A DNA stretch of 41,503 nucleotides, from positions 1 to 41,503 of the forward strand of contig RFFQ01000046.1 of assembly GCA_003697105.1 (NCBI GenBank), in the 5' to 3' direction. The translations under genes were made by a program, and so were the position numbers. The notes below the pieces were generated by a model. It was not told where the DNA came from. It made no database searches and saw only the letters and a program-made list of their open reading frames with translations. Positions 1 to 14,835 of the stretch are shown here, piece after piece (position 1 is the stretch's first letter; each line of letters starts with the position of its first letter). This DNA comes from Gemmatimonadota bacterium. GTDB lineage: Bacteria > 4572-55 > J002.

Positions 1-2153
1 AAAAAGGTATCCTGACAGACACTTTCGTAAACCGGTTCCCACGAGACATAAAAACTAAAGGTGGTATCGGCGCACAAATCCGCCTGCCGAACATCAAACG
101 AAAGGGTGGTTGTAGAATCCCCAAACAGCGTCCCACCATTGCCTGTATAAGTAAAATCACCATTTCCGGCATTATAGCTCCAATCCGAAGCAACATTTTC
201 CACCGTCAACGTACTGGCATTTAAGTCCGATTGAATCACAAAATTAAGGGCACGCCCCCCATTGGTGTTAGTAACCGGAAGCGAAACCGTTTCGGGATAA
301 CCACTCTCCACATTGACCGTACCGGGAAAGGTGATGTTCACGTTGGGTTGTTTTAGCAAGAACGTTAAGCCAGTGGATACCGTTTGCGAACCGGTAGTAC
401 ATGGCTCGCCTGCTGTAGAGGGGACCGAAAGACTATCACAACCATTCACATAGACTTCAAAGGAATAGGTGGAATCATATCCAGCTTCAATTACCGGGAA
501 AAGTGCAGTAAAATAACGGCTGGGAATGTTTGGTGTTACATTTCCACTACCGAGAAAGGACCCGGCAACATATACAAAATCCGCGAACCATGTCGTACTA
601 TCAGTGACATTAAACAAGCGACCTTCACCCGTATTTTTAAGGCGCACTTCAACGCGGATCGTATCCTCAAACGAACCAATCACCGATGATGAAGGTGTGA
701 TCGGTGTTCCGTTTTTCTCGATAGCAACCACTTCCAAGACCAGATTCCCAATCACGACATCATGGGTAAACGTGGTGCTAGCAGAGATGGGGTTATTCTG
801 GTCATCTTCCCCCCGAATCTGCACTGGATTAATATACGTCGCGGAAAGCACCGTACAATCGGTCTGCATGTAGTGATCAATCCGCAGCGTATCCCCCACG
901 GCTAACCGTTGGGCGGCATTAAATTGCCACCGGACGGAATCTGGGGAGAAAACAGTGGTCACAAAATCTCCCGGGGAGCTCAGTGTTAAGCCACCATTAA
1001 TAATTTGGCTGGTGGACTTATAATCAAACCCAGAATCAAACACATTGATAACCGTAAAATCTTCTAGGGCGCTCCCACCGATATTGGTAATCCGGATGGA
1101 GTACCAATCGCCGGCGGTATCATTGCGGTCATGCTGGAGTTCTGCCACAAATAACTCAATCTGCAACGCCGGATCATTTGTGACCCCTGGCGAGACATCT
1201 CCCCCCGTCCGGATCACCCAATCCGTACCATTGTTGGTATCCGTACCATTGGGTGCCAACGCGATCGAATTTCCTGCCACCAAGCCGGTAATATCAATAT
1301 CGTTTACCCACGGCATATCACACGGAGGTGCATTCACATTACCTCCTGTACCATAGGCGATATAATCCACATCATTGCCCAGATCGGTGGTTAAAAGAAT
1401 ATCATCGCCAGCATCGGTAAAAAATTCACCCCCACCGGCATAAAAATGGTAAACCGGACCGACAAAATCGTCAGTACCACTCCCTGCATGGAACACGACA
1501 TATTCACCCGCGCCAACAATTTGATCCGGAAAGGTGTAGGTATTACCATTTTGATTTGATATCGTCCAACCGTTGATATTGTCGCCCGTCACCACATAGA
1601 GTTCCACCCATTCATTGGCGGCGGCGCCAGTTACACTCGCTTCATTAATGACAAACTTACCCAAATCACCATTGGAAGTGCTAATGGAGATATTATGCGT
1701 ATCCGTATCCGTCCCCGCTGGACTCCCAAATGCCGTAACCGAACTGACAATAGATGAAGGCAGATTACAGGTGGTCAGCAGGTCATACGTGATCACAATA
1801 CTATCGCCCGGCGCTAACACATCATTTGAAAAATTGAAAAAGATGAGACTGTCTGGGGAAGGATTGGAATAACTGAGGGTAATTCCACTACCATTGCGGG
1901 TAGCTGTGGGAGCCGGAGTCGAATCAAACAGCAGGCTATCGGGTAGATTATTAACGACCCAGAGCGAATCTGTCGCCGCCCCCGCCGTATTCCGAATCGT
2001 GATCGTAAAGGTTTCGCCATTGGCATCATTCCGGGTCATGGAGGCGGGACCCGAATGGGTCACACTCAACGTTTGCGAGAAGACAATCGGCGTATAAAAG
2101 AACCCAATGATAAGACCGATCAAAACCACACATGAGTAAAATCGAGGTGACAT
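1..2153 (-). CDS. Large secreted surface protein with DUF11-like/Ig domains and a lamin-tail domain (LTD); 3' end runs off the window
   Basis: Not in the ORF track because it has no stop in the window. Translated by hand from ATG 2153 (AGGA upstream): MSPRFYSCVVLIGLIIGFFYTPIVFSQ signal peptide, then FTITIRN..VVNNLPDSLLF..LAPGDSIVITY (DUF11-like), FVINEAS..NEWVELY..GWTISNQNGNTYTFP..GEYVVFH (LTD, ~1660-1180), then further YSIRITNIG and VRLKNTG Ig-like repeats. Frame stays open to position 1. Confidence 0.9.
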   Translation of the reverse strand, partial: MSPRFYSCVVLIGLIIGFFYTPIVFSQTLSVTHSGPASMTRNDANGETFTITIRNTAGAATDSLWVVNNLPDSLLFDSTPAPTATRNGSGITLSYSNPSPDSLIFFNFSNDVLAPGDSIVITYDLLTTCNLPSSIVSSVTAFGSPAGTDTDTHNISISTSNGDLGKFVINEASVTGAAANEWVELYVVTGDNINGWTISNQNGNTYTFPDQIVGAGEYVVFHAGSGTDDFVGPVYHFYAGGGEFFTDAGDDILLTTDLGNDVDYIAYGTGGNVNAPPCDMPWVNDIDITGLVAGNSIALAPNGTDTNNGTDWVIRTGGDVSPGVTNDPALQIELFVAELQHDRNDTAGDWYSIRITNIGGSALEDFTVINVFDSGFDYKSTSQIINGGLTLSSPGDFVTTVFSPDSVRWQFNAAQRLAVGDTLRIDHYMQTDCTVLSATYINPVQIRGEDDQNNPISASTTFTHDVVIGNLVLEVVAIEKNGTPITPSSSVIGSFEDTIRVEVRLKNTGEGRLFNVTDSTTWFADFVYVAGSFLGSGNVTPNIPSRYFTALFPVIEAGYDSTYSFEVYVNGCDSLSVPSTAGEPCTTGSQTVSTGLTFLLKQPNVNITFPGTVNVESGYPETVSLPVTNTNGGRALNFVIQSDLNASTLTVENVASDWSYNAGNGDFTYTGNGGTLFGDSTTTLSFDVRQADLCADTTFSFYVSWEPVYESVCQDTF

Positions 2154-2258
2154 CACGCATTCCTGTTCAAAAAAATGATGATTACCGGCGGATCACATGT
2201 TTATTTTTTTGATACGAACTGAAAAAATCTAAAAAACAAGTCGTGGCGTGCATTCAGG

Positions 2259-5200
2259 TTATCGAATCCGAATTGGCACATAGTGCTGGTGCTTCATCCC
2301 AGAACCCCCCCGATAAGAGAGTTCAACCCAAACCGGTACAAATGTTTGCTGATAATCCGCATCCACCTGAAGGGTGACCACGTGCGTTTGATGGCTGTGC
2401 CGGGACAGTTTATTCAACCGCCATACCGACTGACCCAGATGAACTCCTTCTGCCGGGCTGGTTATATTTAATTTTACGTAATAGGCATCGCCATCACCGT
2501 TATTTTGCACAACCACCACCAGTTGCCCCGTACTACCCGTGCTGAGGGACATATCCGGGGTGAAACTATACGCCAGATACGGCAATTGCGCCGGGTCCGT
2601 GGGAATGGGAACATCCCCAAACACCGGCTCAATATCCGGTGATGGATCGGTACTCGCCAACGCCGTGTTGACGGTCTGGTTGACCTCCTGCACGGTCTGA
2701 TTAATGGATTCCATCACCGGTTCGGTTTGTGTCAATACCTCTGGATTCAAGGTCAACAAGGAGAGCATCGGTGTACTGGAAAGCGTCACCGGCGAATATA
2801 AGCCATTTTTCTCAATCAACCCAATCGTTGCCATGGGGTCAAATTGCCGGATATAATCCGGTACTTCTTGCATCAGTACGTGATCATTCTCCGCTAATTC
2901 CACCACAGCCACATCGCGGTTCTCTGCGGAGACCGGTGTCCTCACGCCACTGAGTAATTCGGGGTCGGGGGCACTGGTGAAAACTTGCTCATCCAATTTC
3001 ACCCGCAGACTGGCGAAAGGACCTTGCTTCCAATAGCTATAATCGGAAAAATCGCGATCCTCGAAGCCGGTAATATTGTAGCCCAAAATCCCTTGGAGAT
3101 TTTGGACAAGCCGCATCCCGACTTCTGCACCCAAACTGTATTGGTAGGTATTCGTCTGGTATTGATGAAGAACCCGTGCTCCAATAGTCAGGTCAAAGCG
3201 GTCTGTCAAATCGTACACCATTTCGGCTAAGCCTAAATCGGTATAGATGGTAAAGGGGTCTAATATTTCAGATTCCCAATCGGTACGCTTAATAGCATAG
3301 CGCCCGCGCAATTGCAACCGGGGCGTTTTTTGGTAAACCGCTTCGGCGGAAACCAACGTTCGGGCGGCAACATACTCCTGCCCTCGATTATAGCGGAACC
3401 GTAACATGGCTAAAACATTTAAGCGATCATGATCCAGAGGGCGAAATGCCCAACCGGCATACCCATCGGATTTGATATTATCCCGTTTGTCTTTCAAATC
3501 CTCATACCAGTAGGTTTGGCGGGCGATAAAATCCACGCCATTTTCAAACCGTTGCCGGGTTTGAAAGTCGATGACATGCTTATCGGAATCATCTCCCATC
3601 CGAATTTCATATTTACCTGAAACTTGGCTGGTGGCAGTCCGCCGGTACGCGGCATTCGCCCCGAAAACATAAAAATCTTCCCGCTGTTGCCCGCTGATTT
3701 TCTGTACAGATTCTCCCCGGACACCCAGATGAAGGGTTTCTCCGAAGGTAAATTTTTGGCGTGCCCCTTCGGTGTACGAGGTACTTTTATTATCAAACGC
3801 AGTATGAGTATAGAGGTCAGTATTTTTTAACACCGTCAATTCCAAACCGGCTTTCGCCCGCAGGGGATTTTCGGTCGAATCAATTTCATCATGTTGGTAT
3901 TCCGCGTTTCCAAACAACCGAATTTTATCAAACAGATGCAGACCTTGCCGGAAATCAAAACTGGCAGTGGATTTGGATGGGAATTGGTCAATCACATCGC
4001 CACTCAAAATTCGGGCATGACCCACCGACAGTTTGAGGTTATTCGTTGGAGCAAAGGTCAATTCGCCTTTTGCCATTTGGGACTCTTCTTTGGAAGTAGC
4101 GCCCTCGCTTTCGGTATACTGATAGCCCACAGCCGCCTCAACACCCGGTAGACCAAAGATAAGTTCCGTGTTATTGACTCGTGTTGTCAGGTCTTTATTG
4201 AGATGATCCCGAACATAGGCTTCACCTCCTAAGCTAATTTTGGTGCGGTTACGGCTACCTAAGCTGAACCGGTATCGCAGCCCATATTTTTCGGTACCCC
4301 GTTCTGCCGACGTGATGCTCGGGTTGGAAAAACTGGATTCCTGATAGCGATAGTACAATTCCACCTGCTTCGTGTTGGATAACGTTTTCACATTCATCAA
4401 GTAGGCTTTACCGGAGGAATCCGCCAATGAGGTGGGGTCTGTGTGTTTGGACTGGGCATATTCCCCTCGAACCTGAATCTTCCGGTTAAATAGGTTCGCT
4501 TTGGCATCGGTACCCAGCAATTCGTAATTTTGAAATTGATCGGCGTTTTCTTCGACCACAGCAGTGACCCCAATTTCACCCACTTCCGGATACCGGATAG
4601 CCGCACGACCGCCATATTTATAATATTTAGCATCCTGCGAGCGGCTTTCATACTGAACGATGATATAAACCGGATTCAAATCAAGGTCTAACGCTGGAAC
4701 CGCTTGCTCAAACAGAATCGACCCATCATCATAATCAATTTGATAATCAGTATGCCGGACTAAATCTTTCCGGCTCAGGATATTTTCAGAATGGAAGCGA
4801 TCCCGCACTTCCACCGTCACTTTTTCACTATTTTCCACCAGAGGGACATGAGACAAGAAGTAATAACCTGAAATACCTTCACTGGGAATTTCTTCCCGTT
4901 GAAAAGCCTGATTACTATAGGTTACAAAACCGGTGGCATTCAAATAATCATTTTCCAGATGTGTTTTGACTCCCTGATACGCCCGGTCATATCGTGTCAA
5001 TTCCGTCTGGGTCAATCCGGCGCGGTAATCACCATACATGGTATAAGACTTATTACGCTCAATCCGGACATATAAAGGAGATTGCGACTCGGAATCATAG
5101 CCCGTTTTGCTAGCATCCCCATAAATCGGATAATAACTATTCGGGTCAATTTGTTCAAACAATTTATCCTTATTGGGGACTTTACGGCTATCATATTGGG

Positions 5201-8200
5201 CTGTCAACAGATATTTCCCTAAGATTCGACCGCGCAAGAACAACTGCAGACCGGCATCGGTCCATACTTCCTCTTCGTAGTCATCCACCACATCTGGGGG
5301 CATCTTCGACCGGTCACCACTAAAGGTTTGGTAGCCAATAGTCCCTTCACCCAAAGCAACAAAGGTAAAATCCCGCAATTCCGGCAGAAATTCAATCCGT
5401 TTGGAGACTTGAAACGAGGTCGAGATCGTCGCGGTAAAAAAGCGGACTTCTGGCTCGTAGGAAGGGCTGAGTTGCACTTTAGCAAAGCCATCTTTGGTTC
5501 TCACCTGATGCCCCGGCATCCCCGGATGCGCGTCGGGAGTCACAAAATCTCCGTGGTCAATCGCGACCGTAACAAAAATGTTATCTGCCACATGAATCCC
5601 ATTTTTATCTAAGATTTCCATAATCAGTGTCGGTTCCGTAACCCCGTCCGACGTCGGATATTTGGGCTCCGTTTTGAACTTAATCTGGGCAGGACGATCC
5701 GCATAATACACATAGACCGGGTCAGATACAATCTCTTTTCGTCCCGGCATAATGGCAACCGCCACCAATTCATTTTTACCCAACTGAATCGGTACACTAA
5801 AATAGTCATATTGCGCCAAACTCACCGCGGCATTTAACCGTTTTTCGCCCACTTGGTCATTGGGGACAACCTTACCATTCACTCGCAATTCATAATTGGC
5901 GGCAAGCGGCACTTGAATACTCACCGAAATTTTGCTTCGTGTCGTGTACACCTCACCATCTTGGGGAGACAGCACAAATGCTTTTTGATTACGTTTCAGG
6001 GCAAGCAATTCTTCCCGCGTCATTTCACTCACTTCTTTGCGGGGCATTGCCGGAGTTTGCTCACCATCCACACCTTCGCTGACCCAGCTTGAGTCCACAT
6101 CGGCTAACGTTTCCGCAGATGATGACGGGACAGAGGAGGTGGGGGTCTTTGACTTCCGAATTAATTTACGACCCGAAGAGGGCTTGCCATTCACATCCGG
6201 CTTTGGTAAGGAGTCCAACTCCACCGCCTCGCCGAGGGGTTTGACTTCATACTGAATGAACGATACACCTGCGGGGACATTCTTTAAATGCCACTCTAAT
6301 TTTCCACCCTCCAGCACTACGGGATCGGGTAGGGGTCTTCCATCCATTTCGGCACTGCCCGGCACATACGCTAACTGGGGAGGGAGTTGATCCTTAACTG
6401 TTAAGGAATCAAACATGCCATCCGCTTCCAGTTTGAGTTCCATACGGGTGGATTGGCGGCGTGATTCCATGGTACTAAGTCGTTCCGGCAATTCAATGAT
6501 AACTTCCGTCCGGCGGTTTTTCTGCATATTTTCTAGGGTGGTATTCGGCGCCACCGGACGTGTTGCCGCAAAGCCCGCCCACGTCATGCGGTCCGGATCG
6601 ACCCCATGATCCACCAAATATTGGTACACCACCCGTGCCCGCGCTTCCGAAAGTTCCCAGTTGGACGGAAATTCTGGGGTGTTAATCGGACGAATATCGG
6701 TGTGTCCTTCCACCCGCCCGGTCGCTGTGGGATAAATCTCTTGCAAGATTTCCACAATACGATCCAAATAATGATAACTCCCTGGGCGTAAATCCGCCTT
6801 ACCCGTATCAAACAGAAAATCACCTAAAGTAAACGTAAGTTCATTTTCATCCGCAACAAATTCGGGTTGTAGGTTCAGCGTAAACTCCTTAGAGCGCCGC
6901 GGATTTCCACGGGCATCAGTCCATTCGATATATGCCAATCGACCCAGAACTTCCGGCATATTTTCAGTATCGACTTCCACGGCGTAGGTAAAAATACCTT
7001 TCATGCCGTCAGGGAAATCACCCAGATTCCAAATGAACTGACCGTCCACCTGCTGGGGAACCGAGTCATATGGTGCATCGTTCCACCGCACACTTTCCGG
7101 GAGATACGTTCCATTTAGGTCTTCACTAACTAAACGGACGTCCGTCATCGCCTCAAAGCTCCGGTCAATACGGAAGATATATTGGACCCGGTTCAAAGCG
7201 GGTTTTTCAGCCCCCGGCGGGAGCAAGGTGATTTCGACCCGGCGGTTGAGTGCCATATTCTTCAGGGAAGTATTCGGCACTTTCGGAATGGACGGTCCAT
7301 ACCCTTTAATGACCATATTTGCGCGATTTGCGCCCAGCGAATCCAGCGCCGCGGCGACTGCTTCTGCCCGTGCTTCCGAAAGCTCCTGATTCGACGGAAA
7401 TTCTGGGGTATGGATCGGACGAATATCGGTATGACCTTCGATTAAAATTTGCCAATCGGGGTGAGTCTCCAAAAAGGCGATCAACTGATGAAATTCATCT
7501 GGAATGCGTAATAGCTCCGCTTTACCCGTATCAAAATGAGATTCTGGAATTTCGAGAACTTGCACAGCTTCCTGTTGTTGCCCCGGTAATAAACGCACCT
7601 CCTGTGATAAATACGCTTTTTGTACGTCAATCGTCGCTAACAGTGGGCGAACCAGCCGGAAATTGGCTTTGACCAGCCCGCTTTCCATCAAATCCACAAA
7701 CTGCGTCGTAGCGGAGCCCACAAAATGATTATCAACCGGCAACGGAATCAAATCAGGCGGCACGGTAACCATATCCAGCTTGATCACATGGACACCGGGG
7801 TCAATACCGTCCACGGAATAAAGACCGTTGGCATCGGTGATAATATACCGCCCATCTTCCATATATAACCGGACTTTATGAAGTGGTACATCCCCCTCAT
7901 CAAATATCCGGTTGTTATTTTCATCAACGAATACTCGTCCCAAAAGACGTCCTTCGGGGCGAAACACACCCTCGATCACCCGGACCACGGCTTGGTCGTC
8001 ATTACTCACCAACGTCACTTCTTCAATTATTTTCACCCGTTCTGGCGAGATAATTTGTTGTGGCGGGACAACTGGATTCCCCGTCATCCGGGCAACATTG
8101 ATATGCTCGCCCACCTGGGTATTGACCCCCGCCACGGAGAGATAACGCAACGTGCGTTTTTCCTTCGGTGCTAAGCTATCTGGGATAACCCACACCGCCT

Positions 8201-10484
8201 GACTTCCATTTTGAATGGGATCGGAGAAGGGTATCCCGTCAACTTTGGAACTACCTTTCACATAGCGGAAACTGTTCGGCATAAAGTCATACAGCCGTCC
8301 ATTGGAAACATATGCGGTCGGGCTCACATTCTCAAAATCAATTTCATATTCCACCAGACCCCCACGCTCGACGGTTTTGCGAAGGACCCGTTTATCAATG
8401 CGGACCATGGGGTTAAGAACGGTAACGACCACAATTTCTGAAAAAGCAACTTCCGTTTCAATGGATTCCAGCGTCGCCATATTGGGAATGCTATCCAAAT
8501 CCACCGCATTATCGATCACTCGGGCATTAAAGGTCACCTGTCCCCACGATTGGCGGGGCAGGGTGGGAAAGGTCCAAATCAGACTCCGGGTGGGTTCATC
8601 GTACCGGGCACTCACCAACACTTCTAGTGAATCGGTTGCCGTTTGGTGAAATTCCGCCTTATTTTGATTATTAATATTGCGCCGGATGACGGACACGGTA
8701 TCCTGATACATCATTAAACGACCATCGGTCCAATTGGTAACATCGGTCAACCGAAAATCGATCTCATCGGTCAAGATGGCATTCGTGATATCAAAAATAC
8801 TTAGATTTTCAAAAGTGATGGTGTACTTCAGCCACTCGCCTGCCTTGACAAATTCTTCCGGTTCCACTTCAATTTTAAGCGGCGCAAAAAAGGCTTGAAT
8901 TCGTTCGATCCGGTCAATGGTGTAATTGGGTCGTGCATCCGGGTCAACGGTGGACTCCACCCGAACGACTAAATCCCAATGCATCGAATTATTATCCCCA
9001 ATAGCGGTGGTATCCGTCACTCCCACCGTGGCAACAATGGTTTGGCGTTCCCCGGGGCGAAGACGCACATCGGGGATACCATCTCCAGACGCATCATCCA
9101 AACGGTCTGTTTGATTCAAGGAATAGAAAAAAACAACGGAATTAGGGGGAAGTGTGCTGTTTTCCCGGTCAAAGAAGACATTAATATCATCCGTCGTATT
9201 ACCGGAATTTAAAATCGTATTAAAAAATACGGCGGGACGTCCTTGCTGGTCTAAGCGGGCGATCTGTCGCACCGAGGAGATATCCGGGGTATCATACCGG
9301 TCCCGCTCCGGATAGTATTCATCGGCGTCATTGGGGAAACGAGGTCGATCCAAAGGACCAATCCAGACTTCAGCAACGGGAGGAATAAGTGTAATGACTT
9401 CATTGGTCTCTTGCGGTTCCCCTTCTAGGGTAGAATAGGAATAGGTACCATAGTTTTCTAACCGCAGATTCCCCGGCACGTTATCATTGACCCGTACCTT
9501 AAAGCGAAACCGTCCCGTTTCCTGCGAACCCAAGCTGAGAATACGGTGCCGGATGCCTAACACATCGGTACCCTCACCGGCGTCCGGTTCTTGATCCACC
9601 CATACGGTATCTTGGATGCCGGAATCAAACACTAAATATTCGGTTTGCCCTTCCGGGAAAACATGAAAACTGCGAGGCACATACGTAATATAAAGACTAT
9701 CATCATCTTGATAGCGGAAAATATCTTGAATGATAACATCACGGGCGGCATTATTCCCTAAATTCCGAAACTCAATGATGTATTCTAAGGTATCGCCTTC
9801 TGCCGCTTCTTGACGATCCACTGACTTATTCACCACCAGATTCGCTCGATTGGAAACATCAACCCGAGCCACATTATCAATATCCGCTGCCGTTGAATGA
9901 ATACTCCGCCCTTCAATATTAAAATAGCCTTGTGCTCCTTCCGGTATCGAGAGGTCCAGTAAGATCGCCACTGCTAAATTAATAAAACCATCCGGTTCGA
10001 TATCTTCTGCTTGGGTAATTTGGGGTTCCCGGGGAGAGGGTAAACCATCCCCGTTCAGATCATGGTAAATACGAATCTGGTCCGGCTCATAATACGGGAA
10101 CCCATTGAAACCTTCCACGTTGAAACAGCGTAAATCGTAAGTATCAGTAATATTGCCTGTATTATATAAGATATAGGAAAAATAGGTTTCAATCCCCGGT
10201 GTGCCAAAACGGGTTTGTCCGGGTGCTTCAACGGTTCCGTTGGGCAGAATTTCCAAACCGTAAACCGGCATAATCTCCGTATATACCGTATTGGAACTAA
10301 CGGTCTGTGGACCTTGGGTGGTACTGTATTTGACATAGGAGGTATTCACAATTTGCATCCCTGCGCGGGCTTTCGCAAAACCCAACGCCGGTAAGCAAAC
10401 CAGAGAGATCACCAATAGCCCGAGCACCCACCAATGGGATCGAGTTTTAAGATATGTCATTATCGGATTCAAAATGGTAGCCAT
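2259..10484 (-). CDS. Giant outer-membrane protein: pilin-like N-terminal domains, DUF11 repeats, SdrD-B-like domain, two OmpA/MotB-like domains, Ig domains, large beta-barrel, C-terminal Ig-like domain
   Basis: ORF 2259..10523; start more likely 10484 or 10460, ahead of the hydrophobic signal WWVLGLLVISLVCLPALGFA. Motifs: NKSVD..GDTLEYIIEFRNLG (DUF11), GRVFVDENNNRIFDEGD (SdrD-B-like), 2x FDTGKA..EGHTD..SNxELSEARA..NRRxE (OmpA-C), and alternating aromatic/Gly beta-strands at ~5370-2980. Confidence 0.9.
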   Translation of the reverse strand: MATILNPIMTYLKTRSHWWVLGLLVISLVCLPALGFAKARAGMQIVNTSYVKYSTTQGPQTVSSNTVYTEIMPVYGLEILPNGTVEAPGQTRFGTPGIETYFSYILYNTGNITDTYDLRCFNVEGFNGFPYYEPDQIRIYHDLNGDGLPSPREPQITQAEDIEPDGFINLAVAILLDLSIPEGAQGYFNIEGRSIHSTAADIDNVARVDVSNRANLVVNKSVDRQEAAEGDTLEYIIEFRNLGNNAARDVIIQDIFRYQDDDSLYITYVPRSFHVFPEGQTEYLVFDSGIQDTVWVDQEPDAGEGTDVLGIRHRILSLGSQETGRFRFKVRVNDNVPGNLRLENYGTYSYSTLEGEPQETNEVITLIPPVAEVWIGPLDRPRFPNDADEYYPERDRYDTPDISSVRQIARLDQQGRPAVFFNTILNSGNTTDDINVFFDRENSTLPPNSVVFFYSLNQTDRLDDASGDGIPDVRLRPGERQTIVATVGVTDTTAIGDNNSMHWDLVVRVESTVDPDARPNYTIDRIERIQAFFAPLKIEVEPEEFVKAGEWLKYTITFENLSIFDITNAILTDEIDFRLTDVTNWTDGRLMMYQDTVSVIRRNINNQNKAEFHQTATDSLEVLVSARYDEPTRSLIWTFPTLPRQSWGQVTFNARVIDNAVDLDSIPNMATLESIETEVAFSEIVVVTVLNPMVRIDKRVLRKTVERGGLVEYEIDFENVSPTAYVSNGRLYDFMPNSFRYVKGSSKVDGIPFSDPIQNGSQAVWVIPDSLAPKEKRTLRYLSVAGVNTQVGEHINVARMTGNPVVPPQQIISPERVKIIEEVTLVSNDDQAVVRVIEGVFRPEGRLLGRVFVDENNNRIFDEGDVPLHKVRLYMEDGRYIITDANGLYSVDGIDPGVHVIKLDMVTVPPDLIPLPVDNHFVGSATTQFVDLMESGLVKANFRLVRPLLATIDVQKAYLSQEVRLLPGQQQEAVQVLEIPESHFDTGKAELLRIPDEFHQLIAFLETHPDWQILIEGHTDIRPIHTPEFPSNQELSEARAEAVAAALDSLGANRANMVIKGYGPSIPKVPNTSLKNMALNRRVEITLLPPGAEKPALNRVQYIFRIDRSFEAMTDVRLVSEDLNGTYLPESVRWNDAPYDSVPQQVDGQFIWNLGDFPDGMKGIFTYAVEVDTENMPEVLGRLAYIEWTDARGNPRRSKEFTLNLQPEFVADENELTFTLGDFLFDTGKADLRPGSYHYLDRIVEILQEIYPTATGRVEGHTDIRPINTPEFPSNWELSEARARVVYQYLVDHGVDPDRMTWAGFAATRPVAPNTTLENMQKNRRTEVIIELPERLSTMESRRQSTRMELKLEADGMFDSLTVKDQLPPQLAYVPGSAEMDGRPLPDPVVLEGGKLEWHLKNVPAGVSFIQYEVKPLGEAVELDSLPKPDVNGKPSSGRKLIRKSKTPTSSVPSSSAETLADVDSSWVSEGVDGEQTPAMPRKEVSEMTREELLALKRNQKAFVLSPQDGEVYTTRSKISVSIQVPLAANYELRVNGKVVPNDQVGEKRLNAAVSLAQYDYFSVPIQLGKNELVAVAIMPGRKEIVSDPVYVYYADRPAQIKFKTEPKYPTSDGVTEPTLIMEILDKNGIHVADNIFVTVAIDHGDFVTPDAHPGMPGHQVRTKDGFAKVQLSPSYEPEVRFFTATISTSFQVSKRIEFLPELRDFTFVALGEGTIGYQTFSGDRSKMPPDVVDDYEEEVWTDAGLQLFLRGRILGKYLLTAQYDSRKVPNKDKLFEQIDPNSYYPIYGDASKTGYDSESQSPLYVRIERNKSYTMYGDYRAGLTQTELTRYDRAYQGVKTHLENDYLNATGFVTYSNQAFQREEIPSEGISGYYFLSHVPLVENSEKVTVEVRDRFHSENILSRKDLVRHTDYQIDYDDGSILFEQAVPALDLDLNPVYIIVQYESRSQDAKYYKYGGRAAIRYPEVGEIGVTAVVEENADQFQNYELLGTDAKANLFNRKIQVRGEYAQSKHTDPTSLADSSGKAYLMNVKTLSNTKQVELYYRYQESSFSNPSITSAERGTEKYGLRYRFSLGSRNRTKISLGGEAYVRDHLNKDLTTRVNNTELIFGLPGVEAAVGYQYTESEGATSKEESQMAKGELTFAPTNNLKLSVGHARILSGDVIDQFPSKSTASFDFRQGLHLFDKIRLFGNAEYQHDEIDSTENPLRAKAGLELTVLKNTDLYTHTAFDNKSTSYTEGARQKFTFGETLHLGVRGESVQKISGQQREDFYVFGANAAYRRTATSQVSGKYEIRMGDDSDKHVIDFQTRQRFENGVDFIARQTYWYEDLKDKRDNIKSDGYAGWAFRPLDHDRLNVLAMLRFRYNRGQEYVAARTLVSAEAVYQKTPRLQLRGRYAIKRTDWESEILDPFTIYTDLGLAEMVYDLTDRFDLTIGARVLHQYQTNTYQYSLGAEVGMRLVQNLQGILGYNITGFEDRDFSDYSYWKQGPFASLRVKLDEQVFTSAPDPELLSGVRTPVSAENRDVAVVELAENDHVLMQEVPDYIRQFDPMATIGLIEKNGLYSPVTLSSTPMLSLLTLNPEVLTQTEPVMESINQTVQEVNQTVNTALASTDPSPDIEPVFGDVPIPTDPAQLPYLAYSFTPDMSLSTGSTGQLVVVVQNNGDGDAYYVKLNITSPAEGVHLGQSVWRLNKLSRHSHQTHVVTLQVDADYQQTFVPVWVELSYRGGSGMKHQHYVPIRIR

Positions 10485-10533
10485 TGCACTTTCTGAATGA
10501 AATAAAAAGCAACACGTTTCCATTTTAATAAAG

Positions 10534-10575
10534 GCTTAGACTTGCCAAGCCGTTAATAACTTGGCAAGTCTAAGC
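10534..10575 (-). terminator. Perfect 16-bp inverted repeat (terminator/attenuator or REP-like hairpin) between the 1075 aa gene and the giant gene
   Basis: GCTTAGACTTGCCAAG (10534-10549), 10-nt loop, CTTGGCAAGTCTAAGC (10560-10575); followed by CTTTATT on the minus strand. Confidence 0.7.
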
Positions 10576-10597: not shown

Positions 10598-13500
10598 CTA
10601 GTCAATCGTGACTTTATACGATACACGCCCTTGTGCCCCGGAATTGAGCCGCCCGTTCGCCGCACTATTCCAAATCCAACGGATATCGGTCACCGTCGGA
10701 TCATTAGCCGCTGCAGTCCAGGTTGCCCCATTGTCGTTACTGTATTCAATGGTATCCGTACCACCGCTACCAATTTCAAACCGTGCTGAATTCGGTACGT
10801 AAGTGGTATTTGCCGGAATATCATCATAGATGTAAACCGTATCCAACGCCGTTGCCGCCGTGTTATAGAAGTTCACATAATACTTCAGTGTATCTTGCGG
10901 AACCCCTTGATTCACGGTAGCAGTTTGGTTATATGTGGTATCTCCATCCGCATAACTACTTGGACCGAGGTTACGAACAGCTTTCCGCACATCCATGCTG
11001 GCATCGATAACGGTCGTAATATCGACCGCGGGGTCAGATGCACCAGTGGCATCTCCCTGACCCACTGCCGTAATCGTTGCCACATCCGAAACACCGTCCG
11101 GAGCGTTGGAGGGGATAAACGCCACAACCCGAATCCGCCAGCTACCACCAATCGGTACAGTATAAAGCAGATCCCATTGCCCGCCGGCAAAGGGCAACGC
11201 ATCCCATTGGTCTGCCGTATCGGGATCTTCCTGATACAAGGCGTAGCTCCAACCGCGGCTAGAACTGATCGTAAAGTAGGAGTTGGTCTGGGAGGTATCC
11301 GCACCCGGAATGATCGTGTTCCCCAAGTTAATCAAATCATGGATATACGAGACTTGAGTATTGGGACGGCCCGAATTTGACCGATCCGGCTCTAGCAAGA
11401 GATTCGGGTTCCGTGGAATACGAATAGAGTCACGGACCGTACTATCAATGTCAGTCTTATTGGTAGAGGTCGCCGTAAAGTACGTTGGATAGGTACCAAA
11501 GGCAGTTGTTGCCGGAAAATCCACCACCGCATACACACATGCCGTATCGCCGCCGGCAACCGGACCAATATCACTAATAGCGGAGAGTTCACTTGCATCC
11601 AAATCACCTTGACAGTCGGCGTCTTCATAGTAGGTCACGTTCCAGGTAGCCGGAAATAGACTTTCCGATAAGGTGTATGTATCGGCCCGGTTTGCTGGGT
11701 TCCGTACGGTCAACGGAATGTTGACAACCGTACTGCTATCGGGGTCAGGCCCTTGGAAGGTGTATGCATTTTCATCCGTAGCCACCGCATCACCACCGTA
11801 AGTATACAAACGGTTCACATATTCCACGGCGGCACCGGTGACATTACGGAAGATGATGGTCGTCCGGTTCACCGCACCAATCACCGCGGTCACCACATCT
11901 CCATTTGTAGCAGAGGTTAGTGGCGCCACTTCCAACGTATCGGTCGCCGCATTAATAACGGCTGAAATACGCGTGATCTCATTGCCAACATTAATAAACT
12001 GACCCACTTGAAAACCCGTCGCATCTGCTACTTGTAAATACTGCGTACTCGGGGTAGAACCCTGAGTTGGGTCTGCGGTCAACGTGGTTTCTAGATTGGG
12101 GTTGTTGGTTGAGAAACCGGGAGCATAGGAGGTATCCGCCGGGTTGATGGACGATTGGGCATAGATCACAATGGTAGAGTCTGTACCGGCATCCACATTG
12201 GCATCCACATACACTTGGACCCGAATCATCGCCGTATCTCCCGGCGCCACGGTGCCCACATCACGGTTAAGGTCACCATCCACATTACCCAGCGGTGTTG
12301 CTCCGTCAAAGAACGAAACCGTGAAACTCCCTGGCTTCTGGCTACCATTGGCACCAAACCGCAAAATGTTGATAATGTCATCCTGCAAACCATTGTTCCG
12401 CACCGTGAGATAAATATTTTGGGTTTCTCCGCCAGCAATCGTATTGATGACAACGGTATCTTCGCTGGCGTTCGTGCCAAAGTCATGCGCCGTTGGTAAC
12501 CCAGCGGGACCGATAGAAACCGATACTTTTTCATAACCCGGACCGTTCAAGCGGGTTTGAACCGGGTTGGTCGGCTGATTGGCTTCCGATTGGTCATCCA
12601 AACGATACTCGACTTGCCCTTGGTTCCGGATAGGAGAACGGCTGGCGGTCAGGTCAACCGGAATGCGAACATCAAACTCAAAATCCCAGTTTTGACCGGC
12701 AATCAAAGTACCGCTACCCGAAGAGGTGGTACCGGTAACAAAACCAATCCCGCGGATGAAATAACCGGCGCCTTGGCTGGCAGCCCATGTTTCGGCATTG
12801 GTTCGGTCGTCAAACCACATCCCAGTACTTCCATCGGGCCAAGAGCCATCCGTCGCATCCGAGAGAGTATCGGTAGCGGCAGGTGTGGTGGTACCCACCC
12901 AATACAGGATACTCCCTGCGGCTGGGGTGTACTGAGTATTGTTATCCACCCGGACAATGGGGAAGGGTTCGGAGGTTAAATCCGCATCATCCCGGGTAGG
13001 TAAGGGGTCCGTAATAATGACCCCATAGTAAAACGCATCCGCCGTTCCGTCACTACCGGTATCAACATGGATCGAGTCAAAACCAGTGGATTGATTACCA
13101 ATGTTGCTCCCATAGAGCGAATAAACAAGCGTATCGCCTGAAGACGCATCGGCAACGTTGACATTTTTGTTAGCAGTCACAATCGCCTCTTCGCTCACCG
13201 TTGTTAAATGATAGTTGACGCTATCATTACAGGCTTGACCCGAAACCGTGTCGCCGGCAGCGGCATAACCCCGAATATCGATTTCAATAAGCTGCCCACT
13301 CGTTGCCGTTACCGGAACGGTGTACGATACAATTAGGGAAACCTGATTATTCGGTGCGTTATAATCACCCGGCACATCCGTGACATAGGTAGTAGTATCT
13401 TCACCGGCGTCAATCAACCCGTTGTTATTTGTATCCAGATAGATTGCGGCATTCGAAAGACTAAAGCCGGTCGCATTAGTATTACTACCGTTAGCAAGTG

Positions 13501-13825
13501 AAACATAAAAATCGTTCAAGTCATTACCGGCATTGGTAAGGGTGTATTGATAGTACACAACCTGTCCGGGGGCGGCACTTTGCTGGTGAGCATAAGAGGG
13601 GGCGCTCCCGCTCGGGGTAATATCCATCCCGCAGATTTCCTGAACGGTGGTGATCACTTGATTCGATGGGGTCGTAAATTGCTGACCCGTCTGATCCACA
13701 TATACCGCCGAGGCAACGTTGGTAATGTCCGTACCCGCGCGCGTATATGCATTTGCTGACGATGTGGCCATCAAGATGCCCGCCATCAGCAACACAACAA
13801 GTATGAGTAACTTGTGATTAGACAT
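10598..13825 (-). CDS. Secreted multi-domain DUF11/Ig protein (~1075 aa), candidate major fibre subunit
   Basis: ATG 13825 with AGGAGG RBS; signal peptide MSNHKLLILVVLLMAGILMATSSANA. Mature N-terminus YTRAGTDITNVAS; repeated YTLTNxGN/LTVRNxG Ig-like domains; Ca-loop-like DTNNNGLIDAGE; last DUF11 domain ends abruptly at GRVSYKVTID. Confidence 0.9.
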   Translation of the reverse strand: MSNHKLLILVVLLMAGILMATSSANAYTRAGTDITNVASAVYVDQTGQQFTTPSNQVITTVQEICGMDITPSGSAPSYAHQQSAAPGQVVYYQYTLTNAGNDLNDFYVSLANGSNTNATGFSLSNAAIYLDTNNNGLIDAGEDTTTYVTDVPGDYNAPNNQVSLIVSYTVPVTATSGQLIEIDIRGYAAAGDTVSGQACNDSVNYHLTTVSEEAIVTANKNVNVADASSGDTLVYSLYGSNIGNQSTGFDSIHVDTGSDGTADAFYYGVIITDPLPTRDDADLTSEPFPIVRVDNNTQYTPAAGSILYWVGTTTPAATDTLSDATDGSWPDGSTGMWFDDRTNAETWAASQGAGYFIRGIGFVTGTTSSGSGTLIAGQNWDFEFDVRIPVDLTASRSPIRNQGQVEYRLDDQSEANQPTNPVQTRLNGPGYEKVSVSIGPAGLPTAHDFGTNASEDTVVINTIAGGETQNIYLTVRNNGLQDDIINILRFGANGSQKPGSFTVSFFDGATPLGNVDGDLNRDVGTVAPGDTAMIRVQVYVDANVDAGTDSTIVIYAQSSINPADTSYAPGFSTNNPNLETTLTADPTQGSTPSTQYLQVADATGFQVGQFINVGNEITRISAVINAATDTLEVAPLTSATNGDVVTAVIGAVNRTTIIFRNVTGAAVEYVNRLYTYGGDAVATDENAYTFQGPDPDSSTVVNIPLTVRNPANRADTYTLSESLFPATWNVTYYEDADCQGDLDASELSAISDIGPVAGGDTACVYAVVDFPATTAFGTYPTYFTATSTNKTDIDSTVRDSIRIPRNPNLLLEPDRSNSGRPNTQVSYIHDLINLGNTIIPGADTSQTNSYFTISSSRGWSYALYQEDPDTADQWDALPFAGGQWDLLYTVPIGGSWRIRVVAFIPSNAPDGVSDVATITAVGQGDATGASDPAVDITTVIDASMDVRKAVRNLGPSSYADGDTTYNQTATVNQGVPQDTLKYYVNFYNTAATALDTVYIYDDIPANTTYVPNSARFEIGSGGTDTIEYSNDNGATWTAAANDPTVTDIRWIWNSAANGRLNSGAQGRVSYKVTID

Positions 13826-14037
13826 TTGAAAACCTCCTGAAAAAGGGTTACCAATAAAAGGCGACGTACAAATCACACGTGGATTTGAACGCGAAAAAAC
13901 AGAACACATTCGACACAAAAAAACGGTAGAGGTCAAACCTCCCTAAACGGTGGTATATCTTTGAGCTATCGCCTCCTTTCAACTCAAAACGATGATATAA
14001 GTATGTTACACGCATAAAAAACCTCGGTTATCATCTG

Positions 14038-14559
14038 TTATTTAACTTTAACCCGGTATTTAAACACAATTTCAGCCGCTGGTTCCAGCGGTTCAAACAA
14101 TGTCCATTGAATATGAGTGTACATATCGGGTGTGGCGATTTTCTTTTTCTCAACCAGATTTCCATTTTCGTCTTCTTCCATCACCGTATATGCAATGGGC
14201 GGAACTTGATACGTCTTACCTTTATCAATGCTGTATTTCAGTTCCACATTCGCCATTTCTGTGGCGGTGCTATCAATATACACCGTTTGGTCGGGGATTG
14301 GGCCCACAATGCTGACATCGTTTGCCGCCGTTTCCCCTTCGTTCCAGTACACAAGAGTGTATTCAATCACATCTTCCGGAAAGGCTTTTTCTGCGGGCGC
14401 AAATTTTTCTTTGACTACCTTTTCGCCATCCACAATTTCTTCCACAAAAAGCACTTTTTGAGCGCGCATTTCACCCTTTAATGCAGGTCCCGCAACCTGA
14501 GCGAGAACCGTCGCGGCAAAAAGTAGAAAAAGGATAAACCCACCACTAAATTTTGTCAT
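14038..14559 (-). CDS. Small secreted single DUF11-like domain protein (~173 aa)
   Basis: ATG 14559 with GGAGGA RBS; signal peptide ending VLA-Q; AFPEDVIEYTLVYWNEG..VGPIPDQTVYI..YSIDKGKTY..YTHIQW..YRVKVK stop. Confidence 0.88.
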   Translation of the reverse strand: MTKFSGGFILFLLFAATVLAQVAGPALKGEMRAQKVLFVEEIVDGEKVVKEKFAPAEKAFPEDVIEYTLVYWNEGETAANDVSIVGPIPDQTVYIDSTATEMANVELKYSIDKGKTYQVPPIAYTVMEEDENGNLVEKKKIATPDMYTHIQWTLFEPLEPAAEIVFKYRVKVK

Positions 14560-14639
14560 GTAAATCCTCCTAAAAAATGATGAAACAAGTATAAGGTATT
14601 CCCTCAAAATAGATGATAATTTACCGGAACACTTTGATT

Positions 14640-14655
14640 AGCAAAGGGTACACCA
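14640..14655 (-). promoter_or_regulatory. Candidate sigma-54 (-24/-12) promoter for the DUF11 operon
   Basis: Minus strand reads TGGTGTACCCTTTGCT, i.e. GG-N10-GC with TTGC, about 80 nt upstream of the first start codon. Confidence 0.6.
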
Positions 14656-14684
14656 AAAAAAACATAACGATATAAATCTTTTTT

Positions 14685-14697
14685 TATCAGCTAGTTA
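14685..14697 (+). promoter_or_regulatory. IHF-consensus site
   Basis: TATCAGCTAGTTA fits WATCAR-N4-TTR, in AT-rich context ~30 bp upstream of the -24 box. Confidence 0.5.
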
Positions 14698-14835
14698 TAT
14701 AAAACACCAAGTGAACCCCCACACCCTATCCAGATAATTTAGGGGTTTAAATACCACCGGTAAGGGTTGATCCGCATACCGTTACTAAAGTGGACTCTTG
14801 CAGAACACCAAAACGGCAGCAATAAACCGCTTTAT

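Follow-up and report, generated by a model that had tools for sequence, protein, structure and literature searches.

Split CLIPPER (DUF11) domains in a conserved four-gene set that appears to encode a surface fibre

Introduction

CLIPPER (DUF11, PF01345), a domain of fibrillar adhesins (PDB 9IFR), is an experimentally shown isopeptide domain with the triad Lys715/Asp748/Asn806, according to the portions of PMC12617251 drawn on here. In CnaA-like folds, as described there, the isopeptide bond links the first and penultimate strands, and the CLIPPER bonds in those portions are intramolecular. BsaA of Clostridium perfringens, a member of the TasA family, forms chains by 'donor-strand exchange and lock' in the portions of a preprint used here (PMC11580942): an N-terminal donor enters the sheet of the neighbouring subunit and is locked by an Asn-Lys isopeptide bond that forms by self-catalysis, with an acidic catalyst, and triad mutants lose oligomers. 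The archaeal thread filament Saci_0406 is a head-to-tail fibre with donor-strand complementation, proposed intermolecular isopeptide bonds and a putative cap gene adjacent (PMC9715654).

In chaperone-usher pili (Fim/Pap), incomplete Ig-like subunits are made whole by an extension at the N-terminus of the subunit that follows, the tip comes first and the terminator last, and an outer-membrane barrel lies at the base. SpyTag/SpyCatcher and related pairs are laboratory constructs made from CnaB-type domains, in which a tag strand and a catcher ligate spontaneously.

Here we describe a set of four genes, P1 to P4, that appears to encode a surface fibre with subunits joined via split domains. The domain family common to P1-P4 is CLIPPER, with the same triad as in 9IFR (Lys in the first strand, Asp, and Asn in the penultimate strand), and complete copies are also present in P2 and P3. 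The terminal copy, however, is cut here after the seventh-strand region; P2 and P3 carry the two strands that it lacks, including the Asn, at their N-terminus, which means that the bond would join two chains. The N-terminal donor and self-catalysed Asn-Lys lock that we propose from sequence and models resemble those of BsaA, but BsaA, in the parts of the preprint considered, differs in its unrelated TasA-like fold, small single-domain subunits, Gram-positive host, and SipW- and T4P-linked secretion with no barrel anchor. The Saci_0406 thread shares a head-to-tail donor-strand chain with proposed isopeptides and a cap gene, which here are proposed from the genes; unlike our system it is archaeal, lacks a CLIPPER domain and an outer membrane, and has a single donated strand, with Asn57 bonded to the N-terminal amine of subunit n+2 (PMC9715654).

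What sets the P1-P4 system apart from Fim/Pap pili is a donor that consists of a two-strand hairpin, a subunit size of about 100 kDa spread over about 7 domains, a likely covalent lock, fusion of the barrel with the final subunit, and a small protein, P1, that accepts a strand instead of donating one. In addition, a genome-wide family search found no usher, PapD or sortase families in the 96.85%-complete genome to which the locus belongs, agreeing with an initial annotation made from the DNA letters, which had seen no usher/PapD or sortase motifs. SpyTag/SpyCatcher similarly divides an isopeptide domain into a strand-bearing tag and a catcher with the remaining residues, whereas in the P2 system a CnaA-like domain would be split naturally and serve assembly. 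Deinococcus SlpA (8ae1/8agd) and T9SS SprA (6h3i/8gl6) resemble P3 in having a very large single-chain barrel, which SlpA also combines with a wall-binding module, but their structural agreement with the P3 barrel is low (TM about 0.2, rmsd 12-16 Å), and P3 has OmpA instead of SLH domains, plus a CLIPPER stalk at its N-terminus that bears a donor hairpin.

Results and discussion

Gene set and conservation

The window, by which we mean the whole 41,503-nucleotide stretch analysed, contains the following features in order of transcription:

14038..14559, minus strand: P1, 173 aa counted from Met17 of the listed ORF; signal peptide and a single truncated CLIPPER/DUF11 domain, acceptor only
10598..13825, minus strand: P2, 1075 aa; candidate shaft subunit, donor hairpin and acceptor domain
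10534..10575, minus strand: 18-bp stem-loop located between P2 and P3; may act as an attenuator, a terminator or a 3' stabiliser
2259..10523, minus strand: P3, 2754 aa; candidate base, anchor and translocon, donor hairpin only
3..2156, minus strand: P4, at least 718 aa, its gene being truncated where the contig ends; signal peptide, candidate tip adhesin

All four ORFs are co-oriented, each opens with a signal-peptide-like segment, and each has DUF11/TIGR01451 matches in a search with Pfam and TIGR01451, which bears out the earlier description of four co-oriented secreted genes of DUF11 type. The termini described for P1-P4 in that annotation likewise agree with the translations. P1 ends in ...IVFKYRVKVK before its stop; P2, which is identical to database protein P0005, continues after ...SSANA with YTRAGTDITNVASAVYVDQTGQQFTTPSNQVITTV and ends in ...RVSYKVTID before its stop; and P3 begins with KARAGMQIVNTSYVKY...SSNTVYTEI. 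In the window's own genome the donor hairpin is found in P2 and P3 only. A literature search found no description of a split-DUF11 four-gene system.

The P2 family has 780 cluster representatives at E <= 1e-3, and both odd termini are present in 22/22 P2 homologues. The gene set proved to be conserved in the neighbourhood survey that the initial annotation had called for: a P1-like gene lies directly upstream of P2 in 64/69 loci with sufficient flank, a hairpin-bearing gene directly downstream in 56/57, and an acceptor-ended fourth gene is present in at least 19 other loci, but the loci are phylogenetically clustered (many are Krumholzibacteriota) and the counts therefore overstate independence. 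The order P1-P2-P3(-P4) is conserved in at least 7 labelled phyla, the loci being labelled Krumholzibacteriota, Latescibacterota, Lentisphaerae, Spirochaetaceae, Bipolaricaulota, Trueperaceae and Meiothermus/Thermus. The stem-loop between P2 and P3 (MFE -36.7 kcal/mol, z -5.96) is unique in the genome, and the spacer is structured in 53/54 loci, as against 5/40 and 6/72 in controls. This RNA hairpin would probably keep P1 and P2 more abundant than P3 and P4.

Acceptors and donors are complementary pieces of one domain

The pieces of the split domain, and the complete copy used for comparison, are:

13640..13747, minus strand: residues 27-62 of P2, the donor hairpin that immediately follows the signal peptide; hhalign columns 187-227
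13718-13720, minus strand: codon of P2 Asn36, the presumed isopeptide Asn (N in 69/72 rows, 3 gaps)
12530..13213, minus strand: complete CLIPPER domain inside P2, residues 205-432, whose own triad is Lys220/Asp273/Asn401
10601..11020, minus strand: P2 acceptor domain, residues 936-1075, CLIPPER without its last two strands, from hhalign and the complex-model interface
10982-10984 and 10823-10825, minus strand: codons of the P2 acceptor triad residues Lys948 and Asp1001, respectively
10269..10373, minus strand: P3 donor hairpin, residues 51-85 (Asn60, Asn78), from hhalign

As the reference for 'complete' in hhalign we used the P2 internal domain (residues 205-432, 228 columns). The P2 C-terminal domain aligns to columns 4-185 of it (E 1.7e-22), the P1 family to columns 16-185 (n=74 sequences, E 1.6e-13) and the P4-type C-ends to columns 3-184 (n=19, E 7.6e-14). 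The P2 hairpin, which is equivalent to the final two strands of a CLIPPER domain, aligns to columns 187-227 (E 1.9e-8), and the P3 hairpin to columns 189-226 (n=52, E 3.1e-5); there is no hhalign match between the P2 hairpin and the P2 C-terminal domain (E 0.59). The acceptors thus end at column 184/185 and the donors cover 187-227, so the pieces are exactly complementary, far beyond chance. The proposal that the C-terminal domains are incomplete, which complete folds would have contradicted, holds: they stop at column 184/185 of 228. The window's own P4 presumably also ends in an acceptor, judging from the other loci and an unlinked ORF at a contig end.

When P2 residues 925-1075 were modelled with P2 residues 27-212, as the initial annotation had suggested for hairpin and acceptor, the hairpin docked onto the C-terminal domain with scores of 0.86, 0.85 and 0.92 (median 0.86), against 0.00 in all 3 controls; 58/80 solved complexes and 2/110 mismatched pairs reach the mark used, a calibration that is only rough here because of the custom alignment. 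At least 89% of contacts agree between runs, and partner pLDDT is at least 89. Hairpin residues 27-64 contact residues 943-950 (the Lys948 strand), 969-986 and 990-1007 (including Asp1001). Although the domain adjacent to the N-terminal strands was in the model, the strands did not fold against it. The complex model speaks to complementarity of the pieces rather than to binding in trans within the cell, and two pieces together may score highly by resembling a solved single-chain fold. In the AF2 model of full-length P2 (pLDDT 80.8) the hairpin is confident (pLDDT about 87-92), which would also fit P2 closing on itself.

The isopeptide triad is conserved across the split

Among 72 P2 family members, acceptor Lys948 is K in 71/72, Asp1001 is D in 69/72 and E in 2/72, and hairpin Asn36 is N in 69/69 non-gap rows. 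The split triad is conserved at least as well as that of the internal domain (K 62/72, D 67/72, N 68/72), and counting by locus gives K in 64/65, D or E in 65/65 and N36 in 66/67. With Lys and Asp on the acceptor and Asn on the hairpin, the triad is divided in a way that implies an intermolecular, self-catalysed lock, through which the large subunits would probably be joined covalently. The P3 hairpin, in contrast, has Ser, Gly or Ala in place of Asn36 in 33/52 loci, and the anchor link would therefore often be non-covalent; the P2 acceptor in those loci still has Lys and Asp. Read by eye, the 19 P4-type C-ends all have Lys and Asp and are without a hairpin. The initial annotation did not mention the isopeptide chemistry of DUF11.

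Architecture of P1, P3 and P4

P1 has Gly at the position expected for the catalytic Asp ('VGPIP'), and only 9/74 P1 sequences keep both Lys and Asp, so P1 is probably a non-covalent cap or chaperone. It would probably bind donor hairpins reversibly, either capping free ends or chaperoning them against premature ligation.

Behind its donor hairpin, P3 contains the following regions:

7674..9839, minus strand: residues about 229-950, a stalk composed of DUF11 and SdrD_B-like domains
6495..7535, minus strand: two OmpA-family domains of peptidoglycan-binding type, residues about 997-1343 (PF00691, E 3.9e-29)
5385..5978, minus strand: two Ig-like domains preceding the barrel, residues 1516-1713 (AF2 model)
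3072..5366, minus strand: giant beta-barrel region, residues 1720-2484 (AF2 model, pLDDT 73.9)
2262..3071, minus strand: extension at the C-terminus, residues 2485-2754, where a CARDB-like match is weak

The Ig-like pair matches intimin D0-D1 (VIA-align Z 11.3, rmsd 2.3 Å, 95 aligned). The modelled barrel has 31 consecutive long strands (model 552-1085) and up to 13 more. Its structural matches have large rmsd values of 12-16 Å; FimD ranks best in VIA (Z 15.8, rmsd 14.2 Å, 368 aligned), and there is no usher homology at the sequence level. Because the OmpA domains lie between the N-terminal stalk and the barrel, the stalk would either thread through the barrel or stay periplasmic. In other loci, P3 ends 44-70 aa past the barrel.

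P4 opens with a normal DUF11-type domain, without a donor hairpin, and contains one further annotated module:

1350-1661, minus strand: P4 LTD, residues 166-269

P4-type proteins bear adhesin- or carbohydrate-associated modules (NPCBM_assoc, MG2, SdrD_B and LTD).

A proposed assembly and its alternatives

We consider it reasonably probable that the operon encodes a modular surface fibre whose subunits are held by a split CLIPPER (DUF11) isopeptide domain. The acceptors would be the C-terminal domains of P2 and P4-type proteins, which keep Lys and the catalytic Asp without the last two strands; the donors would be those two strands, with the Asn, right behind the signal peptides of P2 and P3. 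Once Sec has exported the proteins, a donor hairpin would enter an acceptor and complete its beta-sandwich, as in the modelled insertion, and the Lys-Asn bond that normally forms within one CLIPPER domain would form between two chains. The chain would run from the tip P4 (adhesin, acceptor only) through (P2)n to P3, which as a donor without an acceptor would be the chain terminator, tied to the envelope by its two OmpA-type domains and its very large outer-membrane barrel; the barrel may double as a conduit taking the chain to the surface. This donor/acceptor logic would suit P2 as the shaft, P3 as the base, P1 as a cap or chaperone and P4 as the tip, and polymerisation, covalency, surface location and closure in trans rather than in cis are likewise inferred. 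Complementation in trans would be needed because P3 has a donor but no acceptor and P1 and P4-type proteins have an acceptor but no donor, because the 19 P4-type C-ends keep Lys and Asp without a hairpin, and because the P2 acceptor keeps both residues where the P3 hairpin is without Asn36.

Alternatively, the P2 hairpin could complete the C-terminal domain of its own chain, the isopeptide stapling the chain ends together as in nested CnaA-type pilus adhesins; the P3 hairpin alone would then act in trans, holding P1 or P4, to give a non-polymeric anchored adhesin complex and a ring-shaped protein. Discontiguous CnaA-like domains do exist (GBS104-like_Ig comprises residues 137-211 and 587-717 in the consulted parts of PMC12617251), and the confident hairpin in the P2 monomer, the possible one-to-one pairing of donors (P2, P3) with acceptors, and the co-occurrence in 23 loci of P1 without Asp and P3 without Asn36 all suit this arrangement. 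However, the intervening P2 domains are sequential and complete with none nested, so a ring of about 7 domains would be required, and we see no evident reason for such a protein to be locked into the operon in 56/57 loci. Moreover, P4-type acceptors have Lys and Asp though P3 is without Asn36 in most of the same loci, which calls for the P2 hairpin in trans, and the RNA hairpin behind P2 suggests an excess of P2 over P3 and P4. We therefore think cis closure unlikely.

A split-domain chain could also lie inside the envelope, with P3 as a SlpA-like tether from outer membrane to peptidoglycan and the stalk, P2 and P4 as a periplasmic or inter-layer scaffold. The OmpA domains of P3 are N-terminal to the barrel, an order that SlpA shows with its SLH domain; SlpA matches the barrel with Z 14.2-14.3 (435-439 aligned, at an rmsd of 12.6-16.0 Å); and the system occurs frequently in lineages whose envelopes are unusual (Deinococcota, and MAGs labelled Thermotogae and Bipolaricaulota). 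We judge this location quite improbable, given the adhesin- and carbohydrate-associated modules on P4-type proteins, the barrel of at least 31 strands, which exceeds the needs of a mere anchor, and the extracellular stalks of which CLIPPER domains are typical in the cited parts of PMC12617251.

Finally, DUF11 proteins are common and variable and the single-domain Pfam scores here are weak, but that P1-P4 are ordinary independent DUF11 repeat adhesins, whose odd termini are domain-boundary effects with no complementation, is very hard to credit beside the column-exact complementarity in hhalign, the triad kept across the split, the complex score of 0.86 versus 0.00 in controls, and the synteny across phyla.

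A four-gene locus of probably secreted DUF11 proteins

Four co-oriented genes, P1 to P4, fill positions 1-14700 of the window:

14559..14038, minus strand: P1, 173 aa (translated ORF)
13825..10598, minus strand: P2, the candidate shaft protein, 1075 aa (identical to database protein P0005)
10523..2259, minus strand: P3, the candidate base or anchor, 2754 aa (translated ORF)
2156..3, minus strand: P4, at least 718 aa, running off the start of the contig, all of which is the window

All four proteins have signal-peptide-like N-termini, none has a lipobox Cys, and by Pfam and NCBIfam searches we found DUF11/TIGR01451 repeats in each of them. P3 matches PF01345 (E = 5.2e-17) and TIGR01451 (E = 3.5e-21), the TIGR01451 scores of P1 (29.7) and P2 (27.5) are above the cut-off of 24 bits, and the match of P4 to the CLIPPER/DUF11 family model is weak; DUF11 was renamed 'CLIPPER' in a 2025 paper (PMC12617251). 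The same searches identified two OmpA-family domains in P3 and a lamin-tail domain (LTD) in P4. Residues 28-283 of the long P2 ORF (P0002 numbering) are similar to residues 17-257 of P3 (28% identity), and a Foldseek search of structures with a model of whole P2, predicted from 72 sequences, returned generic multi-Ig chains only. Because the neighbors past position 15326 are housekeeping genes (dxr, dehydrogenases, an ABC transporter, RecG and others), we treat P1-P4 as the unit.

A CLIPPER domain divided between protein ends

For profile-profile comparisons with hhalign, the reference was a complete internal DUF11 domain of P2 (residues 205-432), which spans 228 alignment columns. The final domain of P2 (936-1075) corresponds to columns 4-185 (E = 1.7e-22), the P1 family (74 sequences) to columns 16-185 (E = 1.6e-13), and the C-terminal ends of proteins encoded after P3 at other loci, which we call P4-type (19 sequences), to columns 3-184 (E = 7.6e-14). 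Residues 27-66 of P2, a two-strand hairpin directly after the signal peptide, correspond to columns 187-227 (E = 1.9e-8), and the equivalent hairpin of P3 (52 sequences) to columns 189-226 (E = 3.1e-5). From these spans, the three truncated domains (acceptors) end at the same place and the two hairpins (donors) are exactly the piece that they lack. The terminal domains of P2, P1 and P4-type proteins, which stop at column 184 or 185 of 228, are therefore not the single contiguous stretch that defines a CLIPPER domain, and the hairpin and the C-terminal domain do not match each other in hhalign (E = 0.59).

Both odd termini are present in all 22 homologs from a first search. Among 168 proteins–the first homolog search plus the best 150 of 780 cluster representatives of the P2 family–112 measure 770-1180 aa and stop at most a few residues from the terminal strand of the truncated domain. 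P2 and P3 are the only hairpin carriers in the window's own genome. The initial annotation had described incomplete terminal domains and orphan N-terminal strands, which the column complementarity confirms, and had read them as parts of a fibre built by strand complementation; that reading is supported as far as computation reaches, and is sharpened by a split isopeptide triad.

The isopeptide triad is split with the domain

The CLIPPER paper describes a crystal structure (PDB 9IFR) with an intramolecular Lys715-Asn806 isopeptide bond and Asp748 nearby, and states that in CnaA-like folds such a bond links the first and penultimate strands (PMC12617251). In P2 this triad is divided: Lys948 and Asp1001 are in the acceptor, and Asn36 is in the donor hairpin, on its first strand, the one that becomes penultimate once the fold is completed. 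Two sequence searches of PDB chains, one using the N-terminal part of P3 and one using the profile of the P2 family, turned up no CLIPPER entry, so that the assignment of the Asn rests on the first/penultimate-strand statement together with hhalign. Among 72 family members, K948 is conserved in 71, D1001 is Asp in 69 and Glu in 2, and N36 is present in all 69 non-gap rows; the triad of the internal P2 domain is found in 62 (K220), 67 (D273) and 68 (N401) of the same 72. The split-domain triad is thus at least as strict as that of the internal domain. Genomic loci give a similar picture (K in 64/65, D or E in 65/65, N36 in 66/67). The split-DUF11 reading of the initial annotation is upheld here; the isopeptide chemistry of DUF11 is something that it had missed.

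With our own alignments, we modelled P2 925-1075 together with P2 27-212, a construct in which the hairpin is accompanied by its own next domain and is free to pack on that neighbor. The hairpin paired with the C-terminal domain instead, as the initial annotation would predict. The complex scores were 0.86, 0.85 and 0.92 (median 0.86), versus 0.00 for the best of three controls, and the runs share at least 89% of their contacts, with a partner pLDDT of at least 89. The mark for these scores is reached by 58 of 80 solved complexes and by 2 of 110 mismatched pairs, a calibration that, with our own alignments as input, applies only approximately. Because the joined pieces resemble a known single-chain fold, a pass amounts to likeness to that fold, and this likeness is the very point under test. 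Residues 34-45 of the modelled hairpin contact 997-1000, and residues 57-62 contact 972-975, 950 and 1074. The model supports binding of the hairpin by the acceptor, and K948, D1001 and N36 are all within the modelled interface. With the triad split between the two pieces and all three residues at this predicted interface, a self-catalysed isopeptide bond between chains is likely.

Which hairpin enters which acceptor

P4-type C-terminal ends keep the Lys and the Asp in 19 of 19 cases (read by eye) and have no hairpin, so these proteins need an Asn donor in trans. The hairpin of P3 has Asn36 in only 19 of 52 loci, with Ser, Gly or Ala in the other 33, and keeps Asn55 in 51 of 52. In loci whose P3 is without Asn36, the P2 acceptor still has its Lys and Asp, which points to Asn-bearing hairpins, those of P2, as the partners of P2 acceptors. 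The simplest chain would run from P4 as the tip over (P2)n to P3 as its end and anchor. A P2 hairpin may also complete the C-terminal domain of its own chain, and discontiguous CnaA-type domains do exist inside single chains (PMC12617251).

The P1 family has mostly lost the catalytic pair. Both Lys and Asp are present in 9 of 74 sequences; Asp is replaced by Gly in 42 and Lys by Arg in 13. P1 therefore looks like a non-ligating acceptor, to judge by its sequence, and could either cap free hairpins reversibly or act as a chaperone. The family has an invariant Arg of its own in the last strand ('YRV', 74/74) and a near-invariant His (72/74). Two Glu residues of the P1 family have no counterpart in the P2 acceptor, and the 'YRV' Arg is common to the P1 family and P4-type ends. 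We also looked at covariation between P1 (Lys/Asp) and P3 (Asn36); 23 loci combine KG with SN, which is suggestive, and we assigned no pairing by it because it is confounded by phylogeny.

P4 is truncated in the window, and we found a candidate for its missing part on another contig of the same genome, C144:

C144:15721-24690, minus strand: ORF of at least 2990 aa with DUF11 repeats, cut by the contig end

Its strand and its contig edge are right for a continuation of P4. The last domain of the ORF aligns with the whole P4-type acceptor (hmm 5-125 of 125), finishes in ..MSYKVTIK* and has both Lys and Asp. An attempt to join C144 to the start of the window gave no end overlap, and the reading frames need a gap. 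This ORF is either the rest of P4 or a second adhesin with an acceptor at its end. The initial annotation had asked whether the truncated gene stops at an incomplete DUF11 domain: the candidate does, and the overlap that would tie it to P4 is absent.

P3 combines a donor hairpin with a giant barrel

P3 unites in one chain a donor hairpin, a stalk of CLIPPER domains, domains of the peptidoglycan-binding type and a giant barrel. We modelled residues 1400-2500 by AF2 with 35 homologs (pLDDT 73.9). The model has two Ig-like domains followed by a very long run of antiparallel strands: 31 consecutive long ones in the barrel region (model residues 552-1085; at least 31 by DSSP), with up to 13 more before them and one inserted region. 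The top VIA match of the barrel is the usher FimD (Z = 15.8, rmsd 14.2 A, 368 residues aligned), and it also matches Deinococcus SlpA (Z = 14.2-14.3), MtrB (Z = 12.9) and SprA of the T9SS (Z = 12.1, 498 aligned). The structural neighbors of the modelled barrel are thus large outer-membrane barrels, none of them close. The Ig-like pair before it aligns with intimin D0-D1 over 95 residues (Z = 11.3, rmsd 2.3 A). We infer that P3 ends and anchors the chain, and it may also conduct the chain through the outer membrane; the OmpA domains sit between the stalk and the barrel, which allows more than one topology. Past the barrel, P3 of the window continues for about 270 aa more (C-terminal extension, 2262-3071, minus strand), with a CARDB-like match that is weak; in 34 other loci 44-70 aa follow the barrel.

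The gene set is conserved across phyla

At E<=1e-3 the P2 family counts 780 cluster representatives, of which 289 reach E<=1e-10 and 34 reach E<=1e-30. We scanned one genome per species with a 13-row alignment as query, which gave 124 confirmed encoding stretches, and retained the best 80 of these 124 loci. Their record titles name Krumholzibacteriota, Latescibacterota, Bipolaricaulota, Thermotogae, Lentisphaerae, Spirochaetaceae, Trueperaceae, Meiothermus and Thermus. Within these best 80 of 124, a recognisable P2 is present in 74, a P1-like gene is directly upstream of P2 in 64 of the 69 loci whose flank is 700 bp or longer, and a hairpin-bearing gene is directly downstream in 56 of the 57 with at least 1500 bp; 53 of those 56 loci have further parts of P3. 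The loci are related to one another, so these counts are not counts of independent events. Conservation of the set across genomes, which the initial annotation had named as a check, is borne out. A scan of relatives, in a set of mostly 'same domain' genomes that is little informative, found a match in 2 of 41 genomes including the window's own.

At least 19 loci have a fourth gene, of about 1320-1360 aa, after P3. Its last domain is an acceptor, and its other modules are NPCBM_assoc, MG2 and SdrD_B. As in the window, an LTD gene occupies the fourth position in one Lentisphaerae locus. Two variants of the gene set were found. In Deinococcota two genes stand in for P3, one of about 900 aa that bears the hairpin and ends in ..RWRYP, and one of about 1800 aa:

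L059, L060, L074-L079, L081-L083: split-P3 loci of Trueperaceae, Meiothermus and Thermus, with the ..RWRYP end in all

P1 of these loci is without the Lys/Asp pair, and the P3 hairpin keeps Asn36. A two-gene form, in four loci labelled Bipolaricaulota, Thermotogae or Clostridia (L050, L051, L054 and L070), has a large acceptor-ended gene directly before P2. The upstream protein ends in ..YVTYEVELK and the small P1 is absent. No P3 follows P2 in L050, the only one of the four with enough flank.

A stem-loop follows P2

The spacer between P2 and P3 contains a structured element:

10575..10534, minus strand: stem-loop of 18 bp, right after the P2 stop codon

Its minimum free energy is -36.7 kcal/mol (z = -5.96), and 0 of 200 shuffled sequences fold as well. 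We discarded a dispersed repeat as its origin, as the only full-length match in a search of the own genome was the element itself. The P2-P3 spacer is strongly structured (z < -2) in 53 of 54 loci among L004-L083, versus 5 of 40 spacers between P1 and P2 and 6 of 72 segments within P2. Major pilin genes have a comparable attenuator or 3' stabiliser that keeps the subunit in excess. The stem-loop fits such an element, holding P1 and P2 in excess over P3 and P4, and favours more than one P2 per anchor.

Comparison with known fibres

By searches of the own genome, which is 96.85% complete, we found no PapD (PF00345), usher (PF00577) or sortase (PF04203) family member, and control genomes matched all three; PF00345 is likewise not found in P1-P4. 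The initial annotation had seen no motifs of these pathways, and the family searches agree. The usher of chaperone-usher pili is a 24-strand barrel with a plug; the P3 barrel has the usher FimD as its top match (Z = 15.8), at an rmsd of 14.2 A over 368 residues, and at least 31 predicted strands. Sortase pili carry a C-terminal LPXTG-type signal, but P1 (..VKVK*) and P2 (..KVTID*) stop after a beta-strand without one. Type V pilins (FimA/Mfa) are made as lipobox precursors, unlike P2 (...SSANA|YTR) and P1 (...TVLAQ|VAG), which have no Cys there, and P1-P4 have no FimA-family Pfam match. Nor did P1-P4 match any TasA/camelysin-like family in Pfam or NCBIfam, their domains being DUF11-type beta-sandwiches. 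Intimin-type autotransporters have a 12-strand barrel, a threaded passenger and adjoining Ig-like domains; the Ig-like pair of P3 matches intimin D0-D1, its barrel is far larger, and no autotransporter Pfam family matched P1-P4.

The nearest systems by mechanism are BsaA, an archaeal thread and chaperone-usher pili. In Clostridium perfringens, BsaA is joined by 'donor-strand exchange and lock' with an Asn35-Lys74 bond and Glu56 as the catalyst, and its mutants lose oligomers, according to a preprint (PMC11580942). The archaeal thread has donor-strand complementation, proposed isopeptide bonds and a cap gene (PMC9715654). Residues equivalent to the Asn-Lys lock and acidic catalyst of TasA/BsaA are in place here, and in the modelled interface. 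The parts of the present system are CLIPPER family members, and the traits that define chaperone-usher, sortase, type V or TasA-type fibres are missing from it. Our literature search, which covered openly accessible articles, found no description of a split CLIPPER system. Two papers on related subjects were set aside: the Litorilinea DUF11 'grappling hook' is a single giant tandem-repeat protein and not a split system, and the overlap with haloarchaeal tafi is on DUF1102 only.

A proposed mechanism

The proposed fibre would be of the donor-strand-complemented, isopeptide-locked kind; the system is widespread, and its parts are unrelated to any described assembly pathway. The split-CLIPPER mechanism as a whole we judge to be rather probable. 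A further-reaching reading, a little less likely than not, is an unrecognised, phylum-spanning class of diderm surface fibres without chaperone, usher or sortase, in which natural 'tag-catcher' ligation of a split CLIPPER domain polymerises subunits of about 100 kDa. In this reading P1 would be a catalytically dead catcher that masks tags reversibly until assembly, and irreversible isopeptide formation would drive strand exchange. The single polypeptide P3 would be terminator, peptidoglycan-tied anchor and giant-barrel translocon, and adhesins ending in a catcher (P4 and the unlinked C144 protein, at least 2990 aa long) would be interchangeable on the same stalk.

If true, outer-membrane bacteria would have a new route of fibre building, joined by a self-ligating split isopeptide domain, with covalent strength of the Gram-positive pilus type and neither a sortase nor a chaperone-usher pair. 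Nature would then have its own version of the engineered SpyTag/SpyCatcher, from which orthogonal tag-catcher pairs could be drawn; one operon holds three acceptor types and two donor types. A function would follow for the large family annotated as 'DUF11 domain-containing' (780 cluster representatives) and for the giant OmpA-barrel proteins of many poorly known phyla and of cultivable Meiothermus and Thermus relatives, which are open to experiment. A testable question is also raised of how so large a barrel, with at least 31 strands, lets through or retains a chain that is folded and cross-linked.

Other genes of the window

Past the housekeeping boundary, two tandem paralogs at 27058-31708 (minus strand; 766 and 782 aa) each have a GAF and a SpoIIE/PP2C phosphatase domain. 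An ABC-2 type permease at 23229-25289 (minus strand) is fused to a CAAX (Rce1-like) protease domain, and an ABC ATPase gene lies near it at 26126-27055.
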